Positions 226-53,807 of a DNA stretch of 64,000 nt are shown in pieces. The stretch covers positions 1 through 64,000 of IMG/VR virus record IMGVR_UViG_3300045988_149268; one strand, 5' to 3'. The position numbers were made by a program, and so were the translations under genes. Below the pieces are notes generated by a model. That model ran no database searches. It worked only from the letters and a program-made list of their open reading frames with translations, and was not told the origin of the DNA. Position 1 is the first letter of the stretch, and each line of letters begins with the position of its first letter. The stretch is from a virus.

Positions 226-254
226 TTGACAGAGTTCGAAAATTTTGATATAAT
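226..254 (+). promoter_or_regulatory. Consensus sigma-A/sigma-70 promoter (TTGACA-N17-TATAAT)
   Basis: TTGACA at 226-231, 17-nt spacer with TG, TATAAT at 249-254; followed by GGAGG RBS and TTG start at 286. Confidence 0.6.
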
Positions 255-285
255 AAACATATAAGAGATAAGGAGGAAAAGGAGC

Positions 286-1164
286 TTGATTAATTTAAAT
301 TTACCTGATTTTGATCTTGGTTATAATGCTTATCGCACGTTATTTGAATTAACTGCTCAACATCCAGAAATTGTATATGATGATACTAAAATCGCTGCAA
401 TTTTTGGTATGTTTAATGGAGCGATTTGGAATGGTGGCGGCATTGTTCTAGGCGGATCTGTTACAAAACAATATGTTGAAGAGATTGTGCATTTTTATAA
501 CGATATTATGCGAGTGCCGATTCGTTTTACTTGCACTAATTCTTTAATTACTGAAAAGCAATGTTATGATACATATTGCAATATGATTCTTAAAACTGCC
601 CATAATGGCAAAAATGAAGTTTTGACCTCTTCACCAATTTTGGAGCAATATCTGCGCACAGAATATCCACATTATAAATTCTGTAAGAGCATTATTACAA
701 CCGCCAATGAGCCATATGATACAAGTGGTAAATATGATTTGGTAGTTATGAAACGTCGTATGAATAATAATTGGGAATTTTTAGATACTATTCCTATTGA
801 AATGCGAGGCAAAATTGAATTTTTATGTTGTGATCCTTGTCCGGATAATTGCCCACGTATTTATAGCCACTATAGGGATTTTGCAAGAGCACAAGTTGAA
901 TTTGATGTAGGTTCATCTAATGTTAAATGCTCAATGATGGATGTAAAAGGTCAATTTACTGATTATTATACAAAACATTTGGAAACTTATATTTCACGAG
1001 AAATGATTGAAAAAGAATATGCACCTCGTGGTTTTACTCAATTTAAATTAAGTGGAAGAACAAATATTGGAGCAATTATTATGGATATTGCTAATTATTA
1101 CATTAAACCAGAATATAAGGATGATATGATCCAATATTTATATGGCTCCTATATAGGAGGTTAA
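286..1164 (+). CDS. Hypothetical protein (Cys-rich, CCDPCPDNCP motif); TTG start
   Basis: 292-aa ORF with strong RBS aaggaggaaaagg upstream; no TAG codons; no recognisable family. Confidence 0.6.
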   Translation: MINLNLPDFDLGYNAYRTLFELTAQHPEIVYDDTKIAAIFGMFNGAIWNGGGIVLGGSVTKQYVEEIVHFYNDIMRVPIRFTCTNSLITEKQCYDTYCNMILKTAHNGKNEVLTSSPILEQYLRTEYPHYKFCKSIITTANEPYDTSGKYDLVVMKRRMNNNWEFLDTIPIEMRGKIEFLCCDPCPDNCPRIYSHYRDFARAQVEFDVGSSNVKCSMMDVKGQFTDYYTKHLETYISREMIEKEYAPRGFTQFKLSGRTNIGAIIMDIANYYIKPEYKDDMIQYLYGSYIGG

Positions 1165-1165
1165 T

Positions 1166-3379
1166 ATGTTTGATATTGTAATTCCAACTTATAATACCCC
1201 AGAAAATTTGTTATTAGATTGTTTAAATGGCATTTAGCAATAGCAAATTGATCATTCACTAATTAATGTTATTTTAATTAATGATGCTGGTCAAGCAATT
1301 GATATAGATAGTATTAAATCTTTATATGATTTTCAAATATCATATTATATCAACGATACGAATGTCGGCCCAGGTATTTGTCGGCAATTTGGAGTAGAAA
1401 AAGCATCAGATTGGATTGTTTTTTGCGATGCTGATGACATCTTATTAAAAGACGCTTTATCACAATATTTTAATTTTATTCAACAGGATAAAGACATTGA
1501 CATTATTTATCCCGCACAGATTAATTTGTTGGATGAATTTTTAGCGCAATAGATTGTGTCAAATAATTTTCCAGATGGTTTATATGCAGTATGTGTCAAT
1601 AAGCATTTTTTAACACAACATCCTGATATTAAATTTTTGCCGTATTATTATCACGAAGATGGCTTATTTACTATGTAGTGTGCAATTCATAATCCTCGTG
1701 CAGTCGGCGCAAATGGAGAAATTATAGCTCATAGAATTGGCAGATATGAGTCTTTAGCAACTTTTAAAAACACAGCTATTTATGATTTAAGCTTGATGGC
1801 AAGCGCATATGCGATTTATCATCATTTTTTAAATGAGCAAGAACAACTATACCTATATAATGATTAGAGAAATTTTTATATAGAAATATTATTAAGTCGT
1901 TTGACATTTTCTGATGCTCTTGAGAATAAAGATAATCAAACATTTGTAAATCTACTGTCATTTTTTATCACTTGTATTAAAAGAGCTTTACCTTATGAAA
2001 TAGTAGAATATTTTATACAAAATTTTAGTGAAACGATTTTTAATTGTAATATTTATGATTACTATCCATCTAATTTTTTAAATGATTTAACGCAATTCTG
2101 TGAAAATGACAATCAGACAATTTTTAATTATTTATCTCAAATGGGCAAATTGGCGTTTGAGACATATGTTAAATTAAATAATATTGCATTGCCAGAATGT
2201 ACAATCACTATTCCAACTTATAATAACTCTAAACAATAGATTGAAAGAATTTTAAATCATTTTAGTAGATAGAGTGCCGCAAAGTATATTAATATTTTAA
2301 TTATAGATGATGGCTCAACAAATAATGAACTATCTCTTGTTGAATACCCAGAAAATTTGAAGATATAGATAATTAGATCTAAATTTAATAAGGGTGTTGG
2401 ACGAGCCAGACAAATTGGGCTTGATAATGTTCATACCCCATATGTAATGTTTTTTGATATGGACGATGATATTATTTATGACGACATCGTTTGGCATTAT
2501 CTTGCATTTTTCATGGCACACCCTGATTATACCGGTATTCGAGGAAAAGAAATTTGGAGAAATCCAGCGCAAAATGATAAATTACAAGAAGATGTCTCAT
2601 TAAATAGTTTACACGGACTGTGCTGTAAAGTAGACACATTAAGAGAATATGATATTAAATTTAAACCTTGGCAATATGCTGAAGATGGAATGTTTACTTG
2701 CACAATACTTTTATATGGCTTAAAAATAAAATCTTTAGAAAAAGAGACATTTTATTTCAGAGATCGTGGTTATTTAACTGAAAATATTGAAAGCACTGTT
2801 GGTAATTTAAATTTTGCCACAGATTCTTGTTTGATTATAAGAGCGCTTTTGGAAATTATGGATAGTGCAAAAGCGAATCTTGAAATTATAGAAAATTGTA
2901 AAGATTGTCTTATTAATGAAGTTTAGAATTTAAGTAATTCTATGTTTCCATATGGAAAAAATGAAGAACTTGATACGATAAAAACACAATTTTTACGCGA
3001 TCACGTAATAGATCCAAGAATTAAAAATATTTTATCTATTTATTATTTATATGAGGCAGTTCGTGTTATACCCTTTGCCATATTAAAAGCTATAAAACAA
3101 TAGCCTTGGGCTTGGGAAAATTCATCTTTAATAATGGCTATAGATAATTTACTCGCTAATGATGACTGTTATTATATAAAAATGGCATCAGGCACCGAGA
3201 ACAAAATTTATACAATAGATGGATTAGAAAAAGAAACAATAGAATGGTTTCATGACTATTTGGACTATTGTAAAAATTTACAATAGGAATGTAAAGATTT
3301 AATAATAAATCTTCCACCTTAGGCTATAAAACATTAGCCTTGGAACTATAAAACATATCAATGGAAAGGAAGAAACTAA
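1166..3379 (+). CDS. Tandem family-2 glycosyltransferase (two GT2 domains plus C-terminal extension), read through ~13 in-frame TAG codons
   Basis: Frame is open from ATG 1166 to TAA 3377 except for TAG; two copies of the GT2 signature (IPTYN...IND/DDGS...DADD and ITIPTYNN...IIDDGST...FDMDDD); track fragments 1901-2239 and 2447-2926 are in this same frame. Confidence 0.65.
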
Positions 3380-3732: not shown

Positions 3733-4791
3733 ATGTCTACTTTAAAGATAGGGCCTGGAGCAGCATCTTTAGGCAATGGTGACAGAAAGGCCGGAGTGCG
3801 ATGTAATTTTAATGCCAGTGGAACCGCAGTTGGTTATGATACAAATACTTATAATTATTCGTTATTTTCTGTAACAATGAATATTTCTCTTTGTAAATAT
3901 TATTCTGTATACGGATATTTTGACGTATATAATCAAGCGGGCACCTTAATTGGAAGAACTAAATAGTGGAATGTGGCAGAAAATGCTGGTTCTGTTAAAG
4001 CCTCCGGTGCATCAGCTATATCTTGTACTTTTACTTTAATTAATACCAATCTCGCTGCAGCAATGTAGACGAGTAGCTTTTATTTAATTATTCGTAGAAG
4101 TGGCGGAAGTGGCAACTGCTGTAATATTAGATCTGGTTGTACTGGCACGCTTACTATTAATTATACAAGAACTACTAAAAATAGCCCCCCAGTTCATCCT
4201 ACTACAATTTATTATCCGGCCACAAACGGTGTAAAGACATATAATACAAAACCATACTTTTCATCTTTAACTGGCACAGACCCCGATGGGAATAATGTGC
4301 AATTAGGTTATGCAATTTATGATACAACTACAAAAACATGGCCACAAGCGACAAAATGGTTAGATGGATGGCATAGTGGAGGAACAAGAGTATATTGGTC
4401 ACATTAGACTGCGCTAACCACTGGTCATTATTATTAGCTTTATACATATGCAAGAGATACAAGTTATACCGTTGGAACGGGCAGTTCTGGTCTTCGTGGT
4501 TTTTATGTTTTAGATAATGGGCTATCTATTGGCAGTATAATTGATGACGCGACGATAGATACGTTATAGACAAAAATTAATAATGTTCAAGCATATTACG
4601 GACAAACAAAAAAAATTTTTACTGTTTGTGATAATGGCACAAAATTAAACCGTTCACAAATAGTTGAATTAGAAAATGCAATTGAAGGAACCCCATATAT
4701 TGCTACTACTGCCTATACATCTCCTGCGGTAGGAGACAAAGCGATTGCCAGTCAATTATCTTCCATTAACACAATTATTGGAAATGCTTGA
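3733..4791 (+). CDS. Hypothetical Thr/Gly-rich protein (possible surface or structural protein), 5 in-frame TAG
   Basis: ATG 3733 after RBS ggaggaattaaa; frame open to TGA 4789 apart from 5 TAG; track piece 3700-3966 is its N-terminus. Confidence 0.6.
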
Positions 4792-5112: not shown

Positions 5113-5323
5113 AATATTGTAATAAAGAGAGCCTTACAGCAAAATTTAATTGTGTATCAGCACAAATACAAGATTTGATTTAAAAAGTTATAAATGACTG
5201 CAAGATAGTCCCCTGTATATATTGTGTGGCTCTCGCAATAAAAACATAATATATGCAACGGATTTGAGCAGTTATTTCCTCTCTTTTCTTCCCTTCAATT
5301 GGACGCCTTTAATGCGTCCTTAT

Positions 5324-5399
5324 GCGGGATTAGCGCAGTTGGTAGCGCAACTGGCTTACATCCAGTCGGTCGGCAGTTCGAGTCTGTCATTCCGCACCA
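5324..5399 (+). tRNA. tRNA-Val (anticodon UAC), CCA encoded
   Basis: Acceptor GCGGGAT/ATTCCGC, D-arm GCGC..GCGC, anticodon stem ACTGG/CCAGT with loop CTTACAT, T-arm GGCAG TTCGAGT CTGTC, ACCA end. Confidence 0.75.
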
Positions 5400-5401: not shown

Positions 5402-5432
5402 AAGCAGGATTGGTTACAATCCTGCTATTTTA
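5402..5432 (+). terminator. Rho-independent terminator after tRNA-Val
   Basis: AGCAGGATTG-GTTA-CAATCCTGCT hairpin then ATTTTAA. Confidence 0.65.
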
Positions 5433-6915: not shown

Positions 6916-6922
6916 AAATTTT

Positions 6923-6946
6923 GGGGAGTAGCATATGCTACTCCCC
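6923..6946 (+). terminator. Rho-independent terminator (perfect palindrome)
   Basis: GGGGAGTAGCAT/ATGCTACTCCCC followed by T-rich tract. Confidence 0.7.
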
Positions 6947-6948
6947 AT

Positions 6949-6998: not shown

Positions 6999-7787
6999 AT
7001 GGGATATTGGGAAAGAAAACATGAAATGTCCGCAAAAGCAATAGCACATACAGAAGAAATGAGTTTAAAGTTTGCGCGAGAAATTGAAAATAGCGTAAAA
7101 AATACTAAAATGTATCGTGGCGATATTAAGCGTGAAGAATATGTTAATGCTCCTTATAGACGAATAATTTTAGATCCAGAAACTACGACTCAGGCATTGG
7201 AAACATACTTAAAAGATGGTGAAAAGATTGCGATTCTAAATTTTGCCAGTTATAAAAATCCAGGTGGTTGTTTCATTGATGGCTCAACAGCACAAGAAGA
7301 ATGCTTATGTCATAGTTCTTTTTTGTATAATGTGCTTAAAGAATTTCAAAAATCTTATTATGATGTTAATGCTCAACAATTAAATCATTCTTTGTATACA
7401 AATGCCGGTCTTTATACGCCAAATGTAGCATTTAACTTCAACGGCTTTGACTGGATAAAAACGAATGTTATTACTTGCGCGGCGCCGAATTTTAAATCTG
7501 CTTATCGCTATTGCGACATATCCAAAGAAGAAAATTCCAAAGTTCTTAGAGAACGTTGTCGTTTTGTATTGGATATTGCTTATGATAATCAGATAGAAAC
7601 TTTAATTCTTGGTGCTTTTGGTTGCGGTGTTTTTGGGCAAGACCCAGAAGAAGTTTGCACTATTTTCCTTGAGGAAAATAATAAAATGAATCGTCCTTTT
7701 CATAAAATTGTTTTTGCCGTCCCCCAAGGGACAGGACTTAATGCTATGGCAAATTATTACGCTTTTAAGAGAATCATTTTCGGATAA
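6999..7787 (+). CDS. Bacterial-type PARG / DUF2263 (TIGR02452-like) macrodomain ADP-ribose hydrolase
   Basis: PARG signature GG(G)-X6-QEE present as NPGGCFIDGSTAQEE; size ~260 aa. Confidence 0.55.
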   Translation: MGYWERKHEMSAKAIAHTEEMSLKFAREIENSVKNTKMYRGDIKREEYVNAPYRRIILDPETTTQALETYLKDGEKIAILNFASYKNPGGCFIDGSTAQEECLCHSSFLYNVLKEFQKSYYDVNAQQLNHSLYTNAGLYTPNVAFNFNGFDWIKTNVITCAAPNFKSAYRYCDISKEENSKVLRERCRFVLDIAYDNQIETLILGAFGCGVFGQDPEEVCTIFLEENNKMNRPFHKIVFAVPQGTGLNAMANYYAFKRIIFG

Positions 7788-8646: not shown

Positions 8647-8946
8647 ATGGATGAAACTCTTGTTCTTTGGACGCATGGTGGCTGGATTCCTTATGCAGGA
8701 ATTTACGCAACAGATGTTAGCCGTATTCAAGATTTTAACGTAGTGATTGATGCTTTATGTTCTTCTGCAGGGCGTGAAATGTATAATCGCATTATTGTTT
8801 CAAGTTTTAATGAAATGCAACTATCTTTTGGGCTGGGAACTACAGGAGAATTGCTTCAAAAGCTTCATGAGCTGGAAGTAAAATATGATTATACGGTAAT
8901 TGTACTTCCTCATTCAATAGAAATTGAACATTATTTGGGAGTTTAA
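8647..8946 (+). CDS. Hypothetical protein
   Basis: 99-aa ORF tightly packed between neighbours. Confidence 0.45.
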   Translation: MDETLVLWTHGGWIPYAGIYATDVSRIQDFNVVIDALCSSAGREMYNRIIVSSFNEMQLSFGLGTTGELLQKLHELEVKYDYTVIVLPHSIEIEHYLGV

Positions 8947-8947
8947 G

Positions 8948-9748
8948 ATGCCAAAATTTACAAAATGGGAGCAGGCAATGATGTGCTTGCGACCTCAATA
9001 TAAAACAAAAAATTTTACTTATGAAGAAGCAAAATTATATCTGTTGAACACCGGCTTTGGTAATTTTACTAAAACTTCATGGAATGCGGCAATTAAGCAT
9101 AATATTATTAAAATTGATAATAATAATACTGCTTATTTTCTTTCAGAAAAAAATGAAGCAATTGATTCAGATTGGACGACTTCGCATCGTAAATATTTTA
9201 TATGCGAGCAAGATAAAACAAAAAAAGGATATGGAGATTTCTTTACAAAAGATGAGTTAATTTCTATTAACAATATTTATTTTAATTGGAAGTCAACTTG
9301 TGAGACATATCAATATTATGGATTTCGTAGACCAAATTTGCCTGAACCTATTAGCGAAGGTTTACCTAGCGCACTTTTTGGCTGGGCACGAACAAATAAT
9401 ATGCCACTTGAAAACATTGATGGTTCAGCAGATCTTGTCGATACAGTTAATGGGGATGCTATTCAAATTAAAGGTATTTCTGCTTATGATGAAAAAGATT
9501 GCGGTCCCACTTCATTTGGTCCTAATTCTAAATTTGACAGATTAATTGTTTTGTATGTTCGCCTGGACGAAGATAAAGTGTATTTTTATGAATTTCCAGA
9601 TGCTCAAGATTATAAGAAATGGAAAGTTAATGGAAATCAAACTGTTGCAGATCAACAATTTCAAAATAAACGACCAAGATTAAATTTAATTCCAATCTTG
9701 AAGGAGAGAGGGATTCAACCTTTCTTTGTATATAATTTTAATGTTTGA
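8948..9748 (+). CDS. Hypothetical protein; candidate restriction endonuclease partner of adjacent C5-MTase (unproven)
   Basis: ATG 8948 with RBS tgggagtttaag; immediately upstream of a DNA cytosine-5 MTase; no confident nuclease motif. Confidence 0.4.
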   Translation: MPKFTKWEQAMMCLRPQYKTKNFTYEEAKLYLLNTGFGNFTKTSWNAAIKHNIIKIDNNNTAYFLSEKNEAIDSDWTTSHRKYFICEQDKTKKGYGDFFTKDELISINNIYFNWKSTCETYQYYGFRRPNLPEPISEGLPSALFGWARTNNMPLENIDGSADLVDTVNGDAIQIKGISAYDEKDCGPTSFGPNSKFDRLIVLYVRLDEDKVYFYEFPDAQDYKKWKVNGNQTVADQQFQNKRPRLNLIPILKERGIQPFFVYNFNV

Positions 9749-9773
9749 CTTATTATAAAATTTTTGATATAAT
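9745..9773 (+). promoter_or_regulatory. Sigma-A type promoter TTGACT-N17-TATAAT
   Basis: Consensus hexamers, upstream of MTase gene. Confidence 0.55.
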
Positions 9774-9796
9774 TATAAAAAAGGAGCTGAGAAAGA

Positions 9797-23915: not shown

Positions 23916-25411
23916 ATGGCTGATTATAGCGTAAAAGATATAAAAACGCTGGAAGGTATTGAAGCTATTCGGCTTAGACCCGGTATGTATATTGGTTCAG
24001 TCGGGCCAGAAGGTGTTCGTCATATTACACTTGAAATTATTTCAAATGCTGTTGATGAGTATCTTAATGGTGCGTGTTCAGAAGTTCATGTCACTATTGA
24101 AAATAATAAAATTCAAGTTTCAGACAATGGTCGTGGTGTTCCTTTTGGTAAAGCAAAAGATGGCTCTGAAACACTTATTAATATTTATACAAAACTTCAT
24201 ACTGGCGCAAAATTTGATAGCGAAGGAAAAACTGGATATAATACATCTGGTGGTATGAATGGCGTAGGCGCAAAGGCAACGAATGCTCTATCATCTTGGT
24301 TCCATGTAACATCTATTCGAGATGGACAAATAGCCAATGCTTGGTTTGAAAAGGGTAAACTTAAAGAGTTTAAGACTGAAAAAACCGATGCGAAAAATAG
24401 TGGAACTACTGTTGAGTTCATTCCTGACGAAGAAATTTTTAAAGAAGGGACAGAACTCGACCCTGTTGCTTTGAAAAAGCAGTTGCAGGAACTTGCTTTT
24501 TTGTCTCCTGGTCTAAAATTTGTTCTATGTATCAATAGCAAGTGTGAAGAAATTTCAAGTAAAAATGGTCTTCTTGATTACTTGGATTACCTTTCCAAAG
24601 ATAAAGATGTATTGACATCAAAATTTTTTGCAGAGGCAAACGAGAATAGAATTGGCGTTAAAGTCGCTTTGCAGTATGTTAATGCGTATAGTGATGTCTA
24701 TAAACTATATACAAATAGCATTCCGAATAGTGGCGGCACGCATTTGACTGGTTTTAGAACCGCTTTAACACAATCTATTAACGTTTATGCCAGAAATAAA
24801 GGTTTTCTAAAAGAAAAGGATGAAAATTTTTCAGGAGAAGATTTAAAAGAGGGTCTAATTCTTGTCCTTTCTTTAACGATGCCAGATCCTGTTTTCTCTG
24901 GACAAACTAAAGATACTTTATCTTCAAGCGAGGGCCGCACCATTGTGCAGCGTTTGTGTGCTGCGAGTCTTGAGACATGGCTTAGCACGAATGAAAAAGA
25001 TGCAAAAGCAATTATTAATAAGGCACTCTTGGCACGAAAGGCAAGAGAAAATGCGAGAAAAGCAAAAGAAACAGTAAGAAATACTTCTAAGGCTTCTCGT
25101 ATCACTCTGCCTGGCAAATTGGCAGATTGTTCAAGCAAAAAGAGGCTTACGGATTGTGAGATTTTTATCGTTGAAGGCGACAGCGCCGCAGGTTCAGCTA
25201 AAGAAGCACGTGATCGTAATACTCAAGCAATTCTGCCAGTCCGAGGTAAAATTCTTAATGTATTAAAAGCGGATTTGCATAAAGCGATGAGCAATGCCGA
25301 AATTCAAAGTATGATTACCGCTTTTGGCCTTGAGATTAAAGATGGTAAAATTGTTTTGAACGAAGATAAATTACGCTATGGTAAAATTATTATTATGGCT
25401 GATGCAGACGT
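23916..25411 (+). CDS. Type IIA topoisomerase ATPase/TOPRIM subunit (GyrB/T4 gp39-like), exon 1
   Basis: GHKL ATPase N-terminus, TOPRIM EGDSAAGSAK, ends in MADADV (conserved DADVDGSHI interrupted); exon ends with T as required for group I 5-prime splice site. Confidence 0.75.
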
Positions 25412-28343: not shown

Positions 28344-28573
28344 AAGAAAACATTATTCAAACACCAATAGTAGAAGAAACCGAACAATCATTTTTGGACT
28401 ATTCTCTTTCTGTAATTACTGATAGAGCTATTCCATCTGCGGAAGATGGATTTAAGCCTGTTGTGAGACGTATTCTTTATGATATGTCTGATAATGGTTA
28501 TGCAAGTAACAAACAATATGTTAAATGCGCTTCTCCTGTTGGCGATACAATGGGTCGTTTTCATCCTCACGGT
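28340..28573 (+). CDS. Type IIA topoisomerase DNA-cleavage subunit (GyrA/T4 gp52-like), exon 1
   Basis: N-terminus SFLDYSLSVITDRAIPSAEDGFKPVVRRILY..GRFHPHG(D); interrupted inside conserved HPHGD-SSIYDAL. Confidence 0.75.
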
Positions 28574-29485: not shown

Positions 29486-31627
29486 GATAGTAGTATTTAT
29501 GGCGCTTTGGTTGGTATCGCTCAGCCATGGACAATGCGGTATCCATTGATTGATTTTCATGGCAATTGTGGTAGTCGTGATGGTGATGGGCCTGCTGCAT
29601 ATCGTTATACAGAATGTCGATTGGCTCCAATCGCAGAAGCGACTTTGGAAGATATTAAAAAGAATACGGTAGATTGGCAAACTACATATGCAGAAACAGA
29701 AAAAGAACCTGTTTATCTCCCGGGGCGGTTTCCGAATCTTTTGTGCAATGGAACAACGGGTATTGCTGTTGCAATGGCTTGTTCTTTTGCTCCACATAAT
29801 CTAAATGAAGTAATTGACGCAGCAATTTTTTATATGAATAATAGAGATGCTACCGCAGCAGATTTATGTGATTATGTTAAAGGTCCAGATTTTCCCACTG
29901 GCGGTGTAGTTATTAACAAAAATGAGCTAAAAACCGCATATACTACTGGTAGAGGAAAAGCTCGTATCCGCGGTGAATATATTGTAGAAACTGGAAGAAC
30001 ACATGATACTCTTGTATTTACAAGCATTCCATACAAAGTTTCAAAAGAAACCTTGGCAGAAGAAATCGACAAACTCTGTGAAACAAAAGAGATAGAAGGA
30101 ATTGCAGAAATTCGCGATGAAAGTAATAAAAAAGGCGTCCGATTTGTAATTGAAATTCAAAAAGGATATAGCGCCGAGGTTGTAGCGAATAAGTTATATA
30201 AATTAACTGATTTGGAAACTACTTATAGTTTTAATCAAGTTGCTCTTGTAAATAAAGCTCCAAAATTAATGACACTAAAAGACTTAATTCAAGAATATGT
30301 AAAACATCAAGAAGATGTTTTCAATAGACGTTGTAAATTTGAACTTGAAAAATTGAATACACGTATTCATATTCTACAGGGTCTTGTAAAAGCATCTGAA
30401 AATATTGATAAAATTATTCAAGTTATTAAACGTTCTGAAGACACGGCAAGAGCAAGAAATAATCTAATGGATGTATATCTTTTTACTGAGGCGCAGGCGC
30501 AAGCTATTTTGGATATGAAGTTAAGTAAATTAGCTCATATTGAAAAAGTAGCTTTGGAAAGAGAACTTGAAGATAAACAATCCACAGCGGAAAAACTACT
30601 TGTTATTTTAAACGATCCCGCTGTTGCACAAAAAACTTTGTGTGAAGAGTTGCTTAGTTTTAAATTAAGATTCGGCGATGCTCGTAGAACTAAAATCGAA
30701 CAAATTAATATTACACCAGAAGAAAAAGAAGTAATTGAAATTCAATCAGAAGATTGCGTAGTTTTGGTTACTGAAACTGGAAATATTAAGAGAATGACAA
30801 CGAGTGCATTTAAAGCACAAAAAAGAAATGGGCAAGGTGTAAAAACACAAAACGATATTACACATAGCATAATTTCTACCAATACTATTGATGCGTTAAT
30901 GGTATTTACAAATTATGGTAGAGTTTATAAAGTTTCAGTAAATGATATTCCCGCAGGTAATAATGTTTTTAGAGGCGTGCCAATTAATACTCTTGTTTCA
31001 ATGGACGCCAAAGAAAAATTCATTGCAATTGCTTCTGTTGAGCGTGGGACAAAAGAAGGGCAATATGTATGGTTCGCCACGAAAAATGGTCTTATTAAGA
31101 AAACCGCATTGTCTGAATATGCCGGAGTTAAACGTAAAACAGGTATTACAGCAACGAATATAAAAGATGGCGACGAACTTGTGAGTGTTTTTGTCGCTCC
31201 TGATTGTCAGCTTATGTTCTTTACTGAAAATGGAATGAGTCTTCGTATCAATGGTAAAGACATTGGCGCAACTGCGAGAACAAGCATCGGTGTTAAAGGT
31301 ATCGCATTAAAAGATGATGACAAAACCGCGGTTGTTATTCCTTGTTTTAATGAAACTGAAGTTATTTTGGCTTTTGATAATGGAACAATAAAACGAGTGC
31401 CGATTAAAGAATTTACAATTCAGAATCGAGCTGGTAAAGGTTTAATCTGCGCTAAAAATTGTAAAATTATTGATGCTGTTGCTATTAATGCTACGGATAA
31501 AATATTTGTTGCTGGGACAATATCTAATATTTGTCTTGCAGTATCAGAAATTACTTTGGGCTCTCGTGCTTCAACTGGAATTAAAGCAATTAAAAATGGT
31601 GACATTATCGCCATTACAAAGGTATGA
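29486..31627 (+). CDS. Type IIA topoisomerase GyrA-like subunit, exon 2
   Basis: DSSIY...RYPLIDFHGNCGSRDGDGPAAYRYTECRL... GyrA breakage-reunion domain and beta-pinwheel-like C-terminus. Confidence 0.75.
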   Translation, partial: DSSIYGALVGIAQPWTMRYPLIDFHGNCGSRDGDGPAAYRYTECRLAPIAEATLEDIKKNTVDWQTTYAETEKEPVYLPGRFPNLLCNGTTGIAVAMACSFAPHNLNEVIDAAIFYMNNRDATAADLCDYVKGPDFPTGGVVINKNELKTAYTTGRGKARIRGEYIVETGRTHDTLVFTSIPYKVSKETLAEEIDKLCETKEIEGIAEIRDESNKKGVRFVIEIQKGYSAEVVANKLYKLTDLETTYSFNQVALVNKAPKLMTLKDLIQEYVKHQEDVFNRRCKFELEKLNTRIHILQGLVKASENIDKIIQVIKRSEDTARARNNLMDVYLFTEAQAQAILDMKLSKLAHIEKVALERELEDKQSTAEKLLVILNDPAVAQKTLCEELLSFKLRFGDARRTKIEQINITPEEKEVIEIQSEDCVVLVTETGNIKRMTTSAFKAQKRNGQGVKTQNDITHSIISTNTIDALMVFTNYGRVYKVSVNDIPAGNNVFRGVPINTLVSMDAKEKFIAIASVERGTKEGQYVWFATKNGLIKKTALSEYAGVKRKTGITATNIKDGDELVSVFVAPDCQLMFFTENGMSLRINGKDIGATARTSIGVKGIALKDDDKTAVVIPCFNETEVILAFDNGTIKRVPIKEFTIQNRAGKGLICAKNCKIIDAVAINATDKIFVAGTISNICLAVSEITLGSRASTGIKAIKNGDIIAITKV

Positions 31628-31650
31628 GCAAAAACTCATACCTTTGACTT
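31624..31650 (+). terminator. Rho-independent terminator
   Basis: GGTATGAG-CAAAAAC-TCATACC hairpin then TTTGACTTT. Confidence 0.6.
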
Positions 31651-31672
31651 TATTAAAAATTTTTGATATAAT
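31644..31672 (+). promoter_or_regulatory. Sigma-A type promoter TTGACT-N17-TATAAT
   Basis: Promoter-family member. Confidence 0.55.
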
Positions 31673-31700
31673 AAATTATAAGAAAGAGAGAGGTTATGAA

Positions 31701-33561: not shown

Positions 33562-33598
33562 TGGGGAGGATGAGTGAAATATTCGTCCTCCCTTTTTT
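33562..33598 (+). terminator. Rho-independent terminator
   Basis: GGGGAGGATGAGTG-AAATATTCG-TCCTCCC then TTTTTTAA. Confidence 0.65.
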
Positions 33599-33609: not shown

Positions 33610-34593
33610 ATGCCAGCTATAATTTTAGGAATTATTTGCGGCTTACTCGTTTGTTGTAACTGCTTTTTAATTTTTCGGATTGGGAAAAATATAAAAGAAG
33701 AACAAAAAACTAAAGAAGCCGTAAATTATTAGAATAATAACTTACAGTAGTTAATAACTAATTGTAAGGATTTAGAAGAAAAACAAGATGATTTGTATGA
33801 ATATAAAAAATATTTGGATTCATAGGTGTCCGCGGCCAAAGAAGAATATAATATGCTTCAATAGTATTGTGAACACGCAAATCAAGAATATCATACAAAA
33901 ATATCGTTGATGGAATCTTCACAAAAGACAAAAGAATAGGAATTAATTCAAAAATATAATATTTTATGTGAAGAACAAGAAGAGCGTTTAGGAGAAGTCT
34001 CACGCGACTTTCTAACAGAATGGCGTAAAATAAGTGAAAAACTTTTAAATGATAAAAACGCTTTGGCGGCACAAGTTGAAGAGGAACGCGCCACTTTAAA
34101 TGCTGCTATTGATGCTGCAAAAAGGGCATAGCTTGAACAAATTAAAAAAGATTATTATAAAATTATGCTCGATTCAGTCGCGTAGAAAGATATTGAGCAT
34201 TTGCGCTCTATTGAACCATTATTAACTAGACCAGAGTCATTAAATAAAATTATTTGGAAAGTTTATTATGAAAAACCAGTCTCTGATATGATTGGTAGAG
34301 TTGTCGGCGACACAACTAAAACGGGTATATATAAAATAACGCATTGCGCGAGTGAAATGGCTTATGTTGGTTAGGCTGTTGATATTGCTTCACGTTGGCG
34401 TCAACATATAAAGCGAGGACTTGGTGCAGAAACGCCAACACAAAATAAATTATATCCAGCAATGAAAAAGTTTGGGCCAGAAGCATTTATGTTTGAAATT
34501 CTTGAAGAATGTGATAGAAGTAAATTAGATGAACGTGAAGATTATTGGCAAGATTTTTACCGAGTTAAAGAATTTGGATATAGTATAAAATAA
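33610..34593 (+). CDS. Membrane-anchored coiled-coil protein with C-terminal GIY-YIG nuclease domain (8 in-frame TAG)
   Basis: N-terminal TM IILGIICGLLVCC, long coiled coil, C-terminal GIYKITHCASEMAYVG-Q-AVDIASRWRQH GIY-YIG motif; frame open from ATG 33610 to TAA 34591 except TAG; not in ORF track because of TAGs. Confidence 0.55.
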
Positions 34594-34607
34594 GGAGCGT
34601 ATAAAAA

Positions 34608-34898
34608 ATGTATAGAATTATTGATGGGCGAGGAACGGGAAAGACCAGTCGCTTGATGCTTATAGCAAAAGAAAATAATGCTGTTTTTGTTTGCTCAAAT
34701 ACAAAAGCTATGGAGATAAAAGCGCACACATATGGCCTTACTGGGATACTTTTTATGTCTTATCGTGAATTTAATGAAGTAATACGTAACAAAGGCTACC
34801 TTGATCGTAACGTAGTTATTGATGACCTTGAAGCCTATATAAATTATACTATATCGCCAACTTTTAAATTTGTCGGATATGCAATTAATGAGGATTAA
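34608..34898 (+). CDS. Small P-loop (GxGKTS) protein, paralog A
   Basis: MYRIIDGRGTGKTSRLM...; tandem duplicate of next gene. Confidence 0.55.
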   Translation: MYRIIDGRGTGKTSRLMLIAKENNAVFVCSNTKAMEIKAHTYGLTGILFMSYREFNEVIRNKGYLDRNVVIDDLEAYINYTISPTFKFVGYAINED

Positions 34899-34937
34899 CT
34901 ATAAGATTCGAGTTAGTATAAATAAGGAGTATATGAA

Positions 34938-35240
34938 ATGTATAGAATAATTGATGGACGTGGCACCGGAAAAACAAGCAAATTAATGCGACTCGCAAAA
35001 GAGCGTAATGCAATATTCGTGTGCGCGGCTCCAAAAGCCATGGAAATTAAATCTCACGCTTATGGTATTACAGGTATTCGTTTTATTTCTTATCGTGAAT
35101 TTAAAAATATGCTTAATGACGAATTTCTTGATGAAGGTGGTTTCGTTGGAGATGTCGTTATCGATGAGCTAGAATCTTATATGAATTATACTTTAGGCAC
35201 AGCCTTAAAATTTGTTGGATATTCAATTAGTGAGGAATAA
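34938..35240 (+). CDS. Small P-loop (GxGKTS) protein, paralog B (more GC-rich codons)
   Basis: MYRIIDGRGTGKTSKLM...; ~60 percent identical to paralog A at protein level. Confidence 0.55.
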   Translation: MYRIIDGRGTGKTSKLMRLAKERNAIFVCAAPKAMEIKSHAYGITGIRFISYREFKNMLNDEFLDEGGFVGDVVIDELESYMNYTLGTALKFVGYSISEE

Positions 35241-38320: not shown

Positions 38321-38332
38321 AGTAATCAAAAA

Positions 38333-38365
38333 CCCCAAGTAGATAATACTTGGGGTTGATTTTTA
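38333..38365 (+). terminator. Rho-independent terminator
   Basis: CCCCAAGTA-GATAATA-CTTGGGG then TTGATTTTTATT. Confidence 0.7.
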
Positions 38366-45312: not shown

Positions 45313-45355
45313 ATTATATAGAAAAGGAGCTCTTCAAGGAGGTGGAATTAAAGTA

Positions 45356-48300
45356 ATGGGATTTTTTAATGGACATAATCATACCCATTACTCTTAGGGT
45401 CTAACCTAAGAATTGTCGATTGTATTATTAAGCCAAAAGACCTAATTGATAGAGCGATTCAATTGGGTCTTTCTGGTATTGCTATCACTGATCATGAATG
45501 TTTAAGTGCGCATATGGAAATAAATTTATATGCACAAAAAATTCATGAACAATATCCAGATTTTACAATTGCTCTCGGTAATGAGATTTATTTAACTGAA
45601 ACAAGAGAAAAAGGACAGCCGTATTATCATTTTATTTTAATTGCAAAGGATGCTATTGGTCACAAAGCATTGCGTGAACTTAGTTCAACTGCTTGGTATA
45701 ATTCTTATTTTGACCGTGGCATGGAACGTGTGCCGACGCTTAAAAGTGAATTATCAAATATTATAAATAAATATAAGGGGCACCTAATAGCAACGACAGC
45801 CTGTATTGGTGGAGAATTGCCAAAATTATTGCTGGCTCGTAACAGTTTAAAGATGGCAAATTTGAACACAAATGAAGTAGATGAAAAAATTAATGATTTT
45901 ATTACATTTTGTATAAATACTTTTGGACAAGATAACTTTTTTATTGAATGTGCGCCATCTACTGCAAGTGATCAGATTCTTGTGAATAGACTTCTTGCTG
46001 CAATTAGTAAAGAATATAATCTTAAACTTGTTGTGGCAACAGATAGTCATTATCTTAGTAAAGAAACAAGATTCGCGCATAAGGCTTATTTGAATTCAAA
46101 AGATGGCGAACGTGAAGTTGACGCTTTCTATGAATTCGCCAGATTGATGGATGAAAAAGAAGTAAAGGAATTGCTTCATTACTCTTTTCCATATGAAGAA
46201 AAAATTGGTGATGCAAGATGCTACATTAAGAATCTAGAAAAAGATTTTGTTGATGTAATTTTAGAAAATACTGAATATGTTCGTCAGCAAATTACATATT
46301 ATTCATTGGCTCAAAATCAACATATTCCTACTGTTAATTTACCTGAATATCCTGCTTATATTCAAGCTGGTATTGAAAAGTATCCAACACTAACTAAACT
46401 ATTTAGCTCTTCTAATAATCAAGAGAGATATTGGGTGAATGAGTGCTGGAAAGCGCTTATTGAAAAAAAGTTAATAGATAATGATGAATATGTTGCGCGC
46501 CTTGAAACAGAAGCGGATGTAATTGATTTTATCGGTAATAAACTTGGGACTTGTCTGTTCGCATATTTCAATACTTTTAAACACTATATTGATTTGTTCT
46601 GGGAGTGCGGCAGTATCGTTGGCCCAGGTCGTGGTTCAGCCACCGGCTTTTTAAGCAATTATCTTTTGGGTATTACTCAGCTTGATCCAATTCGTTGGAA
46701 ACTCCCTTGGTTCAGATTTTTGAATAAAGAGCGTGCAGAATTGCCTGATATTGATATTGATTTGGCGCCCTCAAAAAGACCCGCAATTTTCAATGCGATT
46801 AGACAAGAGCGTGGAGAACTTGGCTTAGTTCAGGTCGTAACTTTTGGCACAGAAGGCACCAAAAGTGCAATTCAAACTGCTTGTCGTGGATATCGACATC
46901 AAGATGAGAATGGAATTGAACTATATCCAAATGGCATTGATGTTGACATTGCGTTGTATATTAGCTCTTTGATTCCTCAACAGCGTGGTTTTCTTTGGTC
47001 TATTCATGATGTTGTATATGGAAATGAAGAGCTTGGTCGAGCGCCAGTTAAAGAATTTATAAAAGAAGTTAATCAATATGATGGTCTTTTGAGTATTATC
47101 GAGAATATTGAAGGTCTTATTAAGCAACGTGGTATTCATGCTTCTGGTGTTATGTTATATGATGTAAATCATATTTATGATACTGCGGCGATTATGAAAG
47201 CACCTTCTGGAGATTTGGTAACAGCTTATGATCTTCATATGGCAGAAGCCGCCGGAGATACGAAATATGATTTTCTTGTAACAGAAGTTTCAGACAAAAT
47301 TATTGAAACATTAAAATTAATGGAAGATGATTCTGTTATTCCGACCGATTCTTTAAGAAATATCTATAACAAATATCTCCATCCAGAAATAATTGATACA
47401 GATACGTCAGATATTTGGCAAGCTCTTGCGAATGGTTCTGTTTTGGACGTTTTTCAATTCGGCACTGGTGTTGGATTAGCAATGGCTAAAAAACTTCAGC
47501 CTAAAAATCCTATTGAAATGACTGCGGCGAACGCTATGATTCGTTTGATGTCTGAGCCAGGAGTAGAAAGTCAGCAAGATAGATACTATCGTATTAAAAA
47601 TGGTGGTATTAAAATTTTTGATGATGAAATGCGCCAACATAAGTTGCCTGAACATATGATTCAAGCTCTTCATAAATATTGTGATGAATATTATGGATGC
47701 GTTCCGATTCAAGAGCAAATGATGATGATTCTTATGGATAAAAATATTTCTTCATTTACTCTTGCCGAAGCAAATGATGCACGTAAAATCGTTGCTAAAA
47801 AACAAATGAAACGGATTCCAGAATTAAGAGAGCATTTCTACAGAACGATGGAAAAAGAATATGCTGATTATGTTTGGGAATTAGCAATCGCACCACAATT
47901 GGGTTATGCTTTTAGTTTGAACCATTCACTTCCATATTCTTTTGTTGGTATTCAGACTCTTATCTTAGGCACACGATTTAATCCAGTGTATTGGAATACC
48001 GCTTGTCTTATTGTAAATAGTGGTGCGACAGATCCAGAAATGGATGGAACTACAAATTATGGTAAAATAGCAAAAGCAATTGGTGACATTACAAGCCGAG
48101 GGATTATAATTAAACCAGTTGATATTAATATTTCTGAATATGGGTTTAAACCTAAAGCAGATTCTGGTGAAATTTTCTTCGGACTAAAAGGACTTTTGAA
48201 TGTCGGCGATGATGTAATTGATATGATTTGTAAAAATCGTCCATATGTCAATTTTGCAGATTTTTTGCTAAAAGTGCCAGCAAATAAACAAGCGATTATT

Positions 48301-50109: not shown

Positions 50110-51855
50110 ATGACTACGGTGTTGAAAAGAAACGGCGATTATGTACCATTTGATAAAAATAAAATTATTTCTGCAATTAGTAAAGCATTTTTAGATGTTG
50201 ATGGTTGTTTGTATGAAACAGATACAATTACTGATATTGCCGTAGATATTGAAAGATATTGTTCAGATAAAGATATTATTTCAATTGAATAGATTCAAGA
50301 TAAAGTAGAAGAATATCTAATGCGCTCAGAAAGACCTGATGTTGCTCGTGCTTATATTCGTTATCGCTATAAAAGACAAATTGCCAGATCGGCGAGCGAT
50401 ACTTTTATGAAAGCAATAGGAGAAAAGCTCAATGGCGCGAATATTGAGAATCAAAATGCCAATGTTGATGAACATTCTTTTGGTGGTCGCAAAGGCGAGG
50501 CCGATAGTATTTTAATGAAGAAATATGCACTTGACAATATTGTGTCAGATATGGCTCGTCGCAATCATGAAAATAATAGAATTTATATCCATGATTTAAG
50601 TGATTATGCAGTTGGCTCACATAATTGTCTATCTATTCCTTTTGATCATTTGCTGGCGGATGGATTTAATACAAGACAAACTGATATTCGTCCTGCCAAT
50701 AGTATTAATACTGCTTTTCAGCTTTTAGCTGTAATTTTTCAACTTCAATCACTTCAACAATTTGGTGGAGTAAGTGCGACGCATCTTGATTGGACGATGG
50801 TTCCTTATGTAAGAAAAAGTTTTAGAAAACATTATATTGATGGTTTAAAATATATTGAAAATATAAATGACGAAGAATTATTTCAACATATTCCAATGAC
50901 CGCTGGAATTCAAGATGGAGAATATAAAATTTATAAAAGTGCATATGATTACTCAATGGAAATGACAGAACGTGAACTTCAACAAGCTGTTGAAGGTATG
51001 TACCATAATCTTAATACTTTACAATCACGTTCTGGTAATCAATTACCTTTTACTTCTATTAATTATGGCACTTGCACTTTACCAGAAGGTAGAATGGTTA
51101 TCAAGGCTTTGCTCGAAGGCTCATTAAAAGGCATTGGTAAGCATCATAGAACACCAATTTTCCCTTGCGGTATCTTCCAAATTGGAGAAGGAATTAATAA
51201 ACGACCTGGTGATCCAAATTATGATTTATTTAGACTTGCTTTAAAATCAACCGCAAAAAGATTATATCCAAATTATGCTAATATTGACTGGTCTGGTAAT
51301 ATTGGATATGATCCCAGCCGACCCGATACTTATTTCAGCACGATGGGGTGCCGCACGGCAAATGGTTGGGATATAAATGGTCTTGGCCAGCAGAAAGATG
51401 GCCGTGGTAATATTTGTCCAGTGACGATCATTCTTCCTACTCTCGCCATGGAAGCAAAAGAAGGAATTGACTTCTTATTTCCTGTTGACGAAACTCCTGG
51501 CTATATTGATACTTTTATGAAAATTTTAAATAAAGCTATTGATGATGCTAAAGATATGTTGTTAGAACGTTTTAATTATATTTGTTCTCAAAATCCAGAA
51601 TCTGCAAGATTTATGTATGAAAATGGATTAATGGCTGGTTATATCCCAGAAGAAGGCATCATTAGCGCTTTAAAACACGGCACATTAGCGATCGGGCAAT
51701 TGGGACTAGCTGAAGCACTTCAAATTCTAATTAATTGTAATCAAACAACAGAAGAAGGAATGATTTTAGCTAAAAGAATTGAGTCTCTATTTAAAACAAA
51801 AGCAAGTGAATTTAAAGAACAGTATAAATTAAATTTTGGTGTATATTATACGCCT
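50110..51855 (+). CDS. nrdD: Anaerobic ribonucleoside-triphosphate reductase NrdD, exon 1 (1 in-frame TAG)
   Basis: ATP-cone VLKRNGDYVPFDKNKI, class III RNR core; track ORFs 50110-50292 and 50320-51891 share the frame; exon ends ..GVYYTP. Confidence 0.75.
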
Positions 51856-52818
51856 AAGATTGAATTGGGCGTCGTACAAGTAATTGTATGAAAAAATAAC
51901 CTTGTTAAACGGGCAATCGTAATAAGATGGTAAGAAAGCCTAAACCCTCATGGGCATGGTAATCCCGTAGGATAAAATCTATTGGACAGAAGTGAAAATT
52001 TGTGTTTCATAAAAATTTATGTTATAATAGAACAAGAAAGTGAGGTTTTATTATGGCACGAAGAAAAATGACAGAGAGATTAATTAATCGCAACGATATA
52101 AAAGAAGAGATGCGATTAATTAAAGGAAGTAACACAGATTATATCACTCCAACCGGAAATATATATAAAGATTATGGCAATAATATGTTTTATCATAAAT
52201 CTGTTTTTCCTAATAAAAATAATGGATATTTGTATTGTGGAATTACTTATATTAATGGATAGCGACAACGAAGAGTGCATATCTTAGTTGCAGAAGCATA
52301 TTTGCCAAATCCAGATAATTTACCTATTGTATTGCACTTAGATAATGATAAAAAAAATTGTAATATAAATAATTTAAAATGGGGAACCGTAAAAGAAAAT
52401 ACTTAGCAAGCATTCAATGATAACCTACAAATTAATGATAAGAGTTGGAAAGACTCTCAGTCTATTCATGTGTGTAGTTTTGATTTACAAGGAAATTTGT
52501 TAAATAAGCATGGGTCTATCGGAGAAGCATCTCGAATGTTGCAAGTAACAAAAACAACTATTTTAAATTAGTGTAATCATAATTTAAAGACTAAACCAAG
52601 ATGCGGTTACTATTTTAGGTATTTATCTGAATATGAGTCCAAGGGTTTTGTTCTCTAACGACTATCGAAAATATAGTTATAGAGAAATACTATAATGAAT
52701 AAATGAGTAGAGTAGGCAATAGCCGAAAGACAAGGCTCTTATTATTTGGTAACAGAATAATAAGATGATAATATAGTCTAACCCTCTTAAAAATATCGGG
52801 AAACCGAAGGTAGAAGTG
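51856..52818 (+). mobile_element. Group I intron in nrdD carrying HNH homing endonuclease
   Basis: Upstream frame ends ..NFGVYYTP then stop after 12 codons; downstream exon resumes AENLCYTS.. giving conserved TPAENLC junction; exon1 ends with T, intron ends with G; internal promoter-like aaaaatttatgttataat. Confidence 0.65.
52053..52658 (+). CDS. HNH homing endonuclease (intron-encoded; 3 in-frame TAG)
   Basis: HLDNDKKNCNINNLKWGTVKEN HNH motif; frame open through TAGs to TAA ~52656. Confidence 0.6.
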
Positions 52819-53301
52819 GCTGAAAATCTTTGCTATACGTCAATGAAGAAATTTAAAGATAAATATGGGATTATTCCAAAAGTTTCTGATAAAGAGTATT
52901 TTACAAATAGCATTCACGTTCCAGTTTGGGAAAAAGTTGATATGTTAAAGAAAATTGACATAGAAGCTCAATTAACTGGATATAGCTCCGCTGGATGTAT
53001 TACTTATGTTGAATTGGACGCAGGTATGGAAAATAATTTGGATGCTATGGAAGAAATTGTTATATATGCTATGAATAAAGATATTCCTTACTTTGCCATT
53101 AATGTGCCGAATGATACTTGCCTTGATTGTGGCTATACTGGAGAATTTAACAATCATTGTCCAGAATGTGGCAGTCCGCATATTCAGCAATTAAGACGTG
53201 TAACTGGTTATTTAACTGGTAACTATAAAACTGCTTTTAATAAAGGCAAAATTCAAGAAACAGATATGCGAGTTAAACATACAGGATTAATGGAGGATTA
53301 A
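52819..53301 (+). CDS. nrdD: NrdD exon 2 (glycyl-radical and Zn-ribbon C-terminal domain)
   Basis: CLDCGYTGEF..CPECGS zinc ribbon and glycyl radical motif RRVTGYL. Confidence 0.75.
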   Translation, partial: AENLCYTSMKKFKDKYGIIPKVSDKEYFTNSIHVPVWEKVDMLKKIDIEAQLTGYSSAGCITYVELDAGMENNLDAMEEIVIYAMNKDIPYFAINVPNDTCLDCGYTGEFNNHCPECGSPHIQQLRRVTGYLTGNYKTAFNKGKIQETDMRVKHTGLMED

Positions 53302-53303
53302 TT

Positions 53304-53789
53304 ATGAAATATGCAGGTATTATATATAACGATGTTGCCGCAGCGCCAGGAATTAGTCTTTCATTTTACACCCAGGGTTGCCCCAATCACTGCCCTGGGT
53401 GTCATAATCCTTAGACTTGGGATTTCAATGGAGGCAAAGAATTTACACCAGAAGTGTTAGATTCTATCGTAACTGGGCTTCACGCTCATGGGATTAATCA
53501 TTCCCTTTGTATTATGGGTGGAGAACCATTGTGCCCAGAGAATCAATTTTTAACGCGATTGATTATTGATACGGTTAAACAGAAAAGTCCATTTACTCCA
53601 ATTTATGTATGGACTGGATATACATATGAAGAATTAAAAACAATGACTTCAAATCATTTAACCGCCATTCTTTCATCTATTGATTTTTTGATTGACGGCC
53701 CATATAAACAAGAACTTAGAGATGTTACGCTACCAATGCGAGGCAGTTCAAATCAAAGAATTATTGATATGAGAAATATTGACAATTAA
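53304..53789 (+). CDS. nrdG: Anaerobic RNR activating protein NrdG (radical SAM; 1 in-frame TAG)
   Basis: CPNHCPGC = CxxxCxxC cluster; MKYAGIIYNDVAAAPGISLSFYTQGC N-terminus typical of NrdG; track piece 53454-53789 in same frame. Confidence 0.7.
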
Positions 53790-53807
53790 AAAAATTTATG
53801 ATATTAT
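53779..53807 (+). promoter_or_regulatory. Sigma-A type promoter TTGACA-N17-TATTAT overlapping nrdG stop
   Basis: Consensus -35. Confidence 0.55.

Follow-up and report, generated by a model that had tools for sequence, protein, structure and literature searches.

The early promoters of phage SPO1 belong to the class that is read by the host RNA polymerase. In the very strong early promoters of phage T5 and of the A class of phage T7, whose hosts are E. coli, conservation runs into the AT-rich spacer and the initially transcribed region, which has been interpreted as a tuning of promoter strength and escape, and a conserved A-rich upstream (UP-like) block is also present. The early genes of Kayvirus have near-consensus sigma-70-like promoters read by the host polymerase (PMC8952766). 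The T4-like phages RB49/phi1, PST and nt-1 carry promoter-early stem-loops (PeSLs; Arbiol et al. 2010, PMC2839356; Comeau et al. 2014, PMC4122927). Their defining features are a strong promoter with a stem-loop, an AT-rich upstream block and about 100 bp of conservation, as well as an accumulation in hyperplastic regions near ORFans, indels bounded by the motifs and recombinant mini-circles (PMC2839356). In this study, we have analyzed 64,000 nucleotides of an uncultured phage (IMG/VR record IMGVR_UViG_3300045988_149268, positions 1 to 64,000; hereafter the window), along whose + strand 24 copies of a near-consensus promoter recur. With a probability of roughly 85%, we consider these repeats to be extended −10 promoters recognized by the host RNA polymerase with its primary sigma factor (sigma-A/sigma-70 type), heading an early/middle gene block; this reading, like those weighed against it below, is drawn from the sequence.

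The promoter family itself is real and well defined; the kind of element is known and its finding mostly expected. Exact matches to TTGACW-N17-TATAAT number 11 on the + strand and zero on the minus strand, compared with 0.06 predicted by dinucleotide shuffles, and when up to one mismatch is allowed there are 21 family sites, every one on the + strand with a 17-nt AT-rich spacer. A 42-nt weight matrix trained on those 21 sites, with which the whole window was scanned, returns 24 sites at 23–46 bits, three of them (6949, 10753 and 52000) from outside the training set, and zero sites on the minus strand. The scores are bimodal, the next best in the window reaching 6.8 bits and the top of 20 Markov shuffles 10.6 bits. 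The initial annotation had counted about 24 near-consensus copies, a figure that the scan reproduces, and its list of positions is essentially right: 14012 moves to 14021 and 43591 to 43590, the site at 28285 had been missed, and the copies given as ~52010 and as lying inside the nrdD intron are one single site at 52000. A site at ~50055 was rejected as a family member, the best score there being −14.5, as were the hexamer-only matches at 24214, 43545, 48083, 51284 and 57441, which are sub-threshold and without the family spacer. As judged by an independent repeat finder, the dominant direct repeat of the window is this promoter family (unit length 47–54 nt). Origin iterons, packaging signals and transposon ends were also considered and rejected, as the repeats are strand-specific and tied to gene starts, without an inverted partner or target duplication.

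The aligned consensus reads TTGAYTTTTnnnAAAAtTTTnTGATATAATATATATAGAAA and is followed by a GGAGG-type ribosome-binding site (RBS), the unit of 42–54 nt being TTGAYTTTT-(A/T spacer)-TRTGaTATAAT-ATATATAGAAA-RBS. The −35 element is TTGAC(A/T) or TTGATT at 20 of the 24 sites, with TTGCTT, TGGAAA, TTGAAA and TTGTGT as weaker forms; the −10 element is TATAAT at 22 sites and TATTAT at two, and the spacer is exactly 17 nt throughout. TGnTATAAT is present at all sites but three, namely 28285 and the 32902/33159 pair, which read TTGTATAAT; besides the TG at −15/−14, the T/A pattern of the Gram-positive "−16 region" is conserved. Information content amounts to 0.5–1.4 bits per position across the spacer and to about +10, and falls to ~0 upstream of the −35, where no conserved block was found. 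A shared spacer had been recognized before, within a repeat unit of ~30 nt; the spacer holds, and the unit is longer, since conservation spans from the −35 to about +10 and makes ~45 nt. The longest exact identity between promoter copies is 23 nt. The copies at 32902 and 33159 are indeed near-duplicates (27 of 29 positions identical in the core) around a 66-aa gene.

Both the sequence of the motif and its positions extend to distant relatives. Two scans of IMG/VR gave 160 loci on phage contigs of up to ~200 kb (the longer ones mostly 100–200 kb), with proteins 46–74% identical to the window helicase or DUF2828 protein. Counted by hexamers only, TTGA-N19-TATAAT is found at 236 places on the gene strand and at four on the other strand in 1.4 Mb of sequence from the first 80 loci, and the window-trained matrix matches 77 of the 80 loci, never on the minus strand. 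The clade consensus, TTGActttt...aaaAa.TaTG.TATAATAtataTA.Aaaa, retains the TG, the A-rich spacer and the tail. A promoter stands between the DUF2828 and RlaP genes in 38 of 38 relatives, before YorH (the 38356 junction) in 28 of 31, before the helicase (the 43590 junction) in 26 of 39 and before dnaE in 6 of 6, and junctions that are promoterless in the window rarely carry one in relatives. Because sequence and position are kept at protein identities near 50%, the conservation shows that a regulatory element is under selection and does not reflect recent duplication.

In the window, 54 kb hold the 24 sites, which average one per 2.2 kb and without exception point in the direction of the genes. 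At 19 of them the start codon lies 21–33 nt past the −10 (counting the TTG at 286 for the site at 226). This TTG lies 31 nt past the −10, after GGAGG, which suggests a 292-aa product (286–1164), longer than that of the database call, which begins at 409. The 3' end of the upstream gene is overlapped at 12 sites and its stop codon abutted at two, so that the overlap of −35 elements with upstream stops is commoner than had been stated; at 4788, 9745, 32843 and 33159 the TGA stop is found within the −35 TTGA itself. Terminator hairpins directly before some −35 elements had been reported as well, and a strong hairpin (−14 to −22 kcal/mol) does precede five sites (6949, 12373, 18355, 31644 and 38356), its T-tail doubling as the −35 plus T-run. 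The remaining 19 sites have structure at background level only; among relatives, 38% of promoter sites versus 22% of background reach −10 kcal/mol. Downstream of the site at 5084, a non-coding leader of 210 nt (5113–5323), with a hairpin at 5302–5320, precedes tRNA-Val(TAC); compared with Rfam, this leader had no family match even at E = 1.

The proposal that these elements package genes into promoter–gene–terminator cassettes turned out to be overstated. Nine convincing terminators on the + strand (five promoter-fused and four stand-alone) serve 24 promoters, and single promoter–gene–terminator units number only three (5084 with tRNA-Val, 10753 with DUF2828, and 33159 with a 90-aa ORFan); in most units another promoter follows at once and overlaps the stop codon before it. 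The associated claim, that each of the GC-rich, foreign-looking genes occupies a cassette of this kind, is true of two of the about five GC-richer genes. The RNA ligase and flotillin genes lie inside longer units, and DUF2828, one of the two that are borne by a cassette, is not foreign, because it is a core gene of the clade (55–74% identity in 80 relatives). In the 10 kb upstream of the window there are five further family sites, and in the minus-strand lysis/late region none except one weak 21-bit candidate. This candidate (position 4618 of locus L090, outside the window; contig ~58.6 kb) is gene-oriented, lies upstream of a 364-aa gene, and is the sole family-like site in a late-side locus.

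The window belongs to a 165,752-bp (~166-kb) human-gut phage scaffold (ENA ERZ5855723, run SRR1761717) and has a G+C content of 33–34%. The phage is SPbeta-like and TAG-recoded, represents a new lineage, and probably infects gut Bacillota. Its + strand block encodes replication proteins of the SPbeta type (YorF, YorH, DnaB, primase, RecJ/YorK, an SF1 helicase and PolIII alpha), together with gyrase A and B, DNA ligase, NrdD/NrdG, guanylate kinase and dUTPase, a type II restriction-modification pair, ClpP, PhoH, a PARG-like enzyme, phosphoesterases, RNA ligase, SHMT, flotillin, ORFans and many homing endonucleases; a convergent minus-strand lysis block spans 56.5–64 kb and beyond. Among cultured phages, SPbeta relatives and Geobacillus E3 come closest, at ~35% protein identity, and a nucleotide search of 6 kb of the window against INPHARED phages gave zero matches. 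The contigs of relatives were binned mainly with Bacillota metagenome-assembled genomes. The assignment as TAG-recoded follows from genes that read through in-frame TAG (database gene calls cross such codons, with 1–13 TAG in each of seven window genes) and from the GIY-YIG motif, which is YIG*S in this phage where YIGQS is canonical. TAG is most likely read as glutamine, to judge from this motif, and the gene map was built with TAA and TGA as the only stops. The distribution of in-frame TAG is very uneven: per 1000 codons there are ~19 in homing endonuclease genes and ~7 in the minus-strand lysis block, versus ~2.6 in the remaining + strand genes, a figure that drops to 1.5 once the glycosyltransferase and 352-aa genes are set aside. 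No suppressor tRNA for TAG was found within the window, where only tRNA-Thr and tRNA-Val are present; a scan of the window with Rfam at gathering scores gave these two tRNAs only. At least some phages of the gut/rumen clade to which the relatives belong are TAG-recoded.

If the repeats are primary-sigma promoters, as strand, geometry and conservation in relatives argue well for, the 24 sites would head co-oriented units of one to six genes in the early/middle block. Transcription would start at an A ~7 nt past the −10, within ATATATAGAAA, giving leaders of 14–26 nt that hold little beyond the Shine-Dalgarno sequence, and the AT-rich spacer and discriminator would make these promoters very strong. 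As nine terminators serve 24 promoters, most units are likely to be read through, and the repeated promoters would re-boost transcription along the block, not insulate its genes. Since every unit opens with the same ~45-nt sequence, its start might also be where non-endonuclease accessory cassettes get joined. Some points weigh against this assignment to the host polymerase. The spacer and positions +1 to +10 are more conserved than contacts with sigma-A need, and a superimposed regulator or a leader RNA function could be involved. No sigma factor gene was seen in the ~95 of 166 kb inspected. In addition, the tandem promoters at 32843/32902 and the in-gene promoter at 28285 are unusual, though not contradictory.

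The excess conservation would be explained if the spacer AAAATTTTTGA together with ATATATAGAAA formed an operator for a phage regulator, such as an early shut-off repressor, or a co-regulating signal in the leader RNA, on top of sigma-A recognition. Much of the pattern that runs at 0.5–1.4 bits per position through the spacer to ~+10 persists in the consensus of distant relatives, where recent duplication cannot account for it; however, no candidate regulator was identified, the clade consensus gives no clear support for dyad symmetry of the core (assessed by eye only), and an AT-rich spacer and discriminator are also typical of very strong promoters that have no regulator, so that we regard this possibility as unlikely. 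Recognition by a phage-encoded sigma factor or a phage RNA polymerase is far less probable still. SPbeta-type phages do encode the YonO polymerase, and there are large unannotated proteins in the adjoining region, but the motif has a 17-bp spacer and a TG extension and is the primary-sigma consensus in its textbook form, it heads replication and early genes that are needed before any phage polymerase, and it avoids the lysis/late block, where such a polymerase would be expected to act. Chance matches have to be considered in DNA of 33–34% G+C, in which loose hexamer scans give ~100 "promoters" per 20 kb, close to what shuffles give; the 11 exact matches against 0.06 expected, the 24:0 strand bias, the bimodal scores and the conservation in relatives have already refuted this explanation, whose probability is practically nil.

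A further alternative, related to the shuffling of cassettes in hyperplastic regions to which the initial annotation had likened these modules, is that they are chiefly PeSL-like mobile regulatory cassettes, whose ~45-nt repeat is kept for recombination that swaps accessory genes with their own promoter, and in some cases terminator. To compare cassette boundaries, 29 strain-level contigs of 83–97% nucleotide identity, together covering the whole window, were aligned to it. About 26 distinct indels touch the + strand block, of which about 20 are due to homing endonucleases, introns or inteins that were gained or lost away from promoters, in or beside gyrB, gyrA, a thyX-like gene, AAA_24, dnaB, primase, recJ, the helicase, dnaE, nrdD (three sites) and the nrdD/nrdG junction, and including a 286-aa gene at 16168 and a 243-aa gene after the site at 45284. 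The latter was rejected as a fourth non-endonuclease cassette, being an HNH endonuclease gene. Three of the endonuclease-type elements bring their own copy of the family promoter. One indel is of 145 bp, and another is an unequal crossing-over between tandem paralogues at 34608 and 34938. These genes, of 96 and 100 aa, share 74% identity across 176 nt (34599–34774 and 34929–35104), and L175 and L268 hold just one of them, consistent with such an exchange. Cassettes of other genes are involved in only three indels, each of which has its junction within a promoter/terminator module, so that part of the earlier comparison with PeSLs stands for these cassette boundaries, while most indels lie elsewhere and stem-loops accompany just 5 of the 24 sites.

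The three events differ in how they join. Where L089 and L091 lack the restriction-modification cassette, an intact TTGAAA-N17-TATAAT overlaps the stop of the 99-aa gene; the insertion in the window splits this −35, leaving TTG on the left side and GGAAAA on the right, which explains the weak −35 of the site at 10753. A 143-aa gene of L089, L091 and L181 is inserted in the 5' arm of the terminator at 12373, between AGGAGGA and AAGAGGA repeats. As these two junctions show microhomology (TTG, AGGAGGA) without a second promoter copy on the other side, they are not promoter–promoter exchanges. In the case of L177, a 1.3-kb cassette (a 177-aa gene and a methyltransferase-like gene) lies between two promoter copies, identical at 27 of 29 positions, that both align to window positions 31643–31688, that is, to the single promoter at 31644. 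This promoter is chimeric, agreeing with the left copy of L177 up to and including the spacer and with the right copy at the −10. L268, whose locus begins inside the cassette, carries the same two genes, and L273 keeps the end of the 177-aa gene. As far as the aligned sequences go, two copies against one is exactly the PeSL pattern, and it matches that described for ORF192 of RB49/phi1 (PMC2839356). Against a null of ~75 equally likely gene junctions, 24 of them with promoters, three of three gives p ~0.03, which is suggestive in a sample of n = 3.

Evidence at the clade level can be read in both directions. The DUF2828–RlaP junction is a clade-wide hot spot, with insertions in 36 of 38 relatives and a promoter count that grows with insert length (rho 0.64), the promoters head several ORFans (82, 66, 90 and 141 aa), and mobile endonuclease genes bring family promoters with them, all of which would fit portable modules. 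Insertions of more than 250 bp occur in 48% of observations at promoter junctions versus 19% elsewhere, a difference driven by two hot spots. However, the promoter junction at 38356 has insertions in 0 of 31 relatives and the promoterless primase–RecJ junction in 20 of 38; promoter density is the same in variable DNA (0.47 per kb, in the inserts of the DUF2828 hot spot) and in the core (0.44); in replication modules from IMG/VR, a promoter is touched by 2 of the 14 indels that pass a clean-indel filter; and promoter positions are kept at core junctions in distant relatives. With only three informative strain events, two of them with microhomology junctions, with most strain indels distant from promoters, and with exact identity between copies of at most 23 nt, shuffling as the chief role of the modules is doubtful. 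Primary-sigma promoters remain our preferred explanation, to which a PeSL-like role at junctions may be added as a reasonable, if tentative, secondary reading with limited support. Two cassettes of restriction-modification type are among the strain-variable ones. It is conceivable, though we would not favor it, that in this clade of 100–200-kb gut/rumen Bacillota phages the module serves as a portable junction for the exchange of defence-type cassettes and ORFans, PeSL-like and independent of T4-like phages.

The load of homing endonucleases, introns and inteins is very high (strain loci L267–L286), and the window has insertions in gyrB (25411–26461), gyrA (28573–29492) and nrdD (51854–52819), in none of which an Rfam group I or II intron model reaches the gathering score. 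In several strains (L179, 9066–9962; L184, 5016–5914; at ~23975 in the window), the 5' end of gyrB harbors a GIY-YIG/NUMOD endonuclease gene that has its own family promoter, and behind this gene the first ~20 gyrB codons recur in a divergent second copy; a free-standing endonuclease seems to have brought along gyrB flanks from another phage. Among the first 17 dnaE codons (window 45333–45410, L273 14849–15600 and L269 14803–14870 compared), the window and L273 have an 8-nt insertion (TCTTAGGG) relative to L269, which alters the reading frame of the N-terminal HxH region. This insertion accompanies either a free-standing HNH gene lying between the promoter at 45284 and dnaE (L273) or the 24-nt 3' remnant of that gene (window), and may be a homing scar or a change protecting the site that is targeted. 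An alternative start of dnaE, at 45356, was dismissed, being in another frame that runs into an in-frame TAA. Coordinates are collected in Table 1.

Table 1. Promoter sites, terminators and other features of the window (P, promoter; scores from the 42-nt matrix).
Feature	Position, strand	Signal	Context
Stand-alone terminator	119..140 +		After tRNA-Thr
P226	226..267 +	−35 TTGACA, TG-extended −10, exact hexamers; 33.5 bits	Heads 292-aa open reading frame (TTG 286), glycosyltransferase and further genes
P4788	4788..4829 +	TTGATT; 45.4 bits	TGA of upstream 352-aa gene inside −35; heads 82-aa ORFan
P5084	5084..5125 +	38.0 bits	Leader, tRNA-Val(TAC) 5324–5399, terminator 5403–5426, then ClpP and PhoH
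Stand-alone terminator	5403..5426 +		After tRNA-Val
Terminator hairpin	6922..6947 +	11 bp, −21.7 kcal/mol	T-tail enters −35 of P6949
P6949	6949..6990 +	TTGCTT; 35.2 bits, untrained	Heads PARG-like gene 6999–7787
P7788	7788..7829 +	43.5 bits	Abuts TAA stop of PARG-like gene; heads methyltransferase, 99-aa gene, RE_Bsp6I
Restriction-modification cassette	8938..10748 +		RE_Bsp6I, internal P9745, C5 DNA methylase; missing from L089/L091
P9745	9745..9786 +	37.6 bits	−35 TTGA contains restriction enzyme TGA; heads C5 methylase
P10753	10753..10794 +	Degraded −35 TGGAAA; 35.2 bits, untrained	Heads DUF2828/DUF7788 core gene
Terminator hairpin	12344..12374 +	13 bp, −19.6 kcal/mol	Fused to P12373 −35; 5' arm is insertion point of 143-aa gene in L089/L091/L181
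P12373	12373..12414 +	46.5 bits	Heads RlaP-like gene and metallophosphatase
P14021	14021..14062 +	41.8 bits	Heads small open reading frames, RNA ligase, HNH homing endonuclease
Stand-alone terminator	17138..17163 +		Upstream of SHMT, no promoter after
Terminator hairpin	18334..18359 +	−14.4 kcal/mol	After SHMT, overlaps P18355 −35
P18355	18355..18396 +	45.1 bits	Heads YqeY-like gene, 134-aa gene, metallophosphatase
P20012	20012..20053 +	42.1 bits	Upstream stop in spacer; heads 95-aa gene, kinase, phosphoesterase, flotillin
P23008	23008..23049 +	−10 TATTAT; 37.5 bits	Heads two ORFans
P23856	23856..23897 +	46.0 bits	Heads gyrB, interrupted by insertion with GIY-YIG endonuclease
P28285	28285..28326 +	28.6 bits	Within 3' end of RNase H gene; heads gyrA; matching promoter in L175, L177, L179
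Terminator hairpin	31617..31646 +	−17.3 kcal/mol	After gyrA, fused to P31644 −35
P31644	31644..31685 +	36.7 bits	Single copy in window; heads DNA ligase
P32843	32843..32884 +	40.7 bits	−35 contains ligase TGA; tandem with P32902
P32902	32902..32943 +	TTGTATAAT subtype; 36.8 bits	Heads 66-aa ORFan
P33159	33159..33200 +	Near-duplicate of P32902; 34.3 bits	−35 holds TGA of 66-aa gene; heads 90-aa ORFan
Stand-alone terminator	33563..33593 +	14 bp	Closes P33159/90-aa cassette
P35943	35943..35984 +	41.0 bits	Heads 123-aa gene, YorF-like gene, AAA_24
Terminator hairpin	38331..38357 +	−18.5 kcal/mol	After AAA_24, fused to P38356 −35
P38356	38356..38397 +	41.2 bits	Heads YorH-like gene, DnaB, primase, RecJ
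P43590	43590..43631 +	36.5 bits	Abuts RecJ stop; heads SF1 helicase
P45284	45284..45325 +	27.0 bits	Heads dnaE; leader keeps 3' remnant of free-standing HNH endonuclease gene
P52000	52000..52041 +	23.2 bits, untrained	Inside nrdD insertion, heads its HNH endonuclease; gone with insertion in six strains
P53779	53779..53820 +	−10 TATTAT; 44.2 bits	nrdG stop in spacer; heads 165-aa gene, dUTPase and further genes
TAG-relevant stretches	1166-3379, 3733-4791, 16168-17028, 25589-26299, 27242-28343, 28802-29425, 33610-34593, 52053-52658, others		

All together, the matrix provides a clean and transferable promoter model for a large clade of uncultured gut phages. It divides the early block into transcription units, separates genes read by the host polymerase from the lysis/late block, and corrects several database gene starts, as in the case of the TTG at 286, which fits better than 409. 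Should the role at junctions be true, this would be the first promoter-mediated modular shuffling shown outside T4-like phages, and it would help to explain how restriction-modification cassettes move between phage strains.

Compared with PeSLs, the window has in common many near-perfect copies of TTGACA-N17-TATAAT placed between an upstream stop and a downstream Shine-Dalgarno sequence, some of them joined to a terminator stem-loop, with neighbors that include ORFans, nrdD and a DNA polymerase gene, and with close strains in which a cassette with two flanking copies corresponds to a single copy. Unlike in PeSLs, the stem-loop, at the few window sites that have one, is always upstream with its T-tail as the −35 and never between or over the hexamers, an AT-rich block upstream of the −35 is missing, and the unit is ~45 nt rather than ~100 bp. 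The window sites are, moreover, equally dense in the conserved replication core and in variable DNA, and most strain indels of this phage are endonuclease or intron events. The lineages differ as well, the window family, known from sequence alone, belonging to an SPbeta-like, TAG-recoded phage with Bacillota as the host phylum. With respect to the T5 and T7 A-class promoters, the A-rich upstream block has no counterpart in the window, and the passage of conservation beyond the hexamers is shared. As in the Kayvirus phage K/SAM1 (PMC8952766), near-consensus promoters, which in the window are probably read by the host primary sigma, are repeated at the head of early units on one strand, and late genes would be served otherwise; in contrast to the Kayvirus and SPO1 sets, the window set shares a longer sequence, including the spacer and the +1 region, shows an extreme compaction against upstream stops, and is carried by a TAG-recoded phage.

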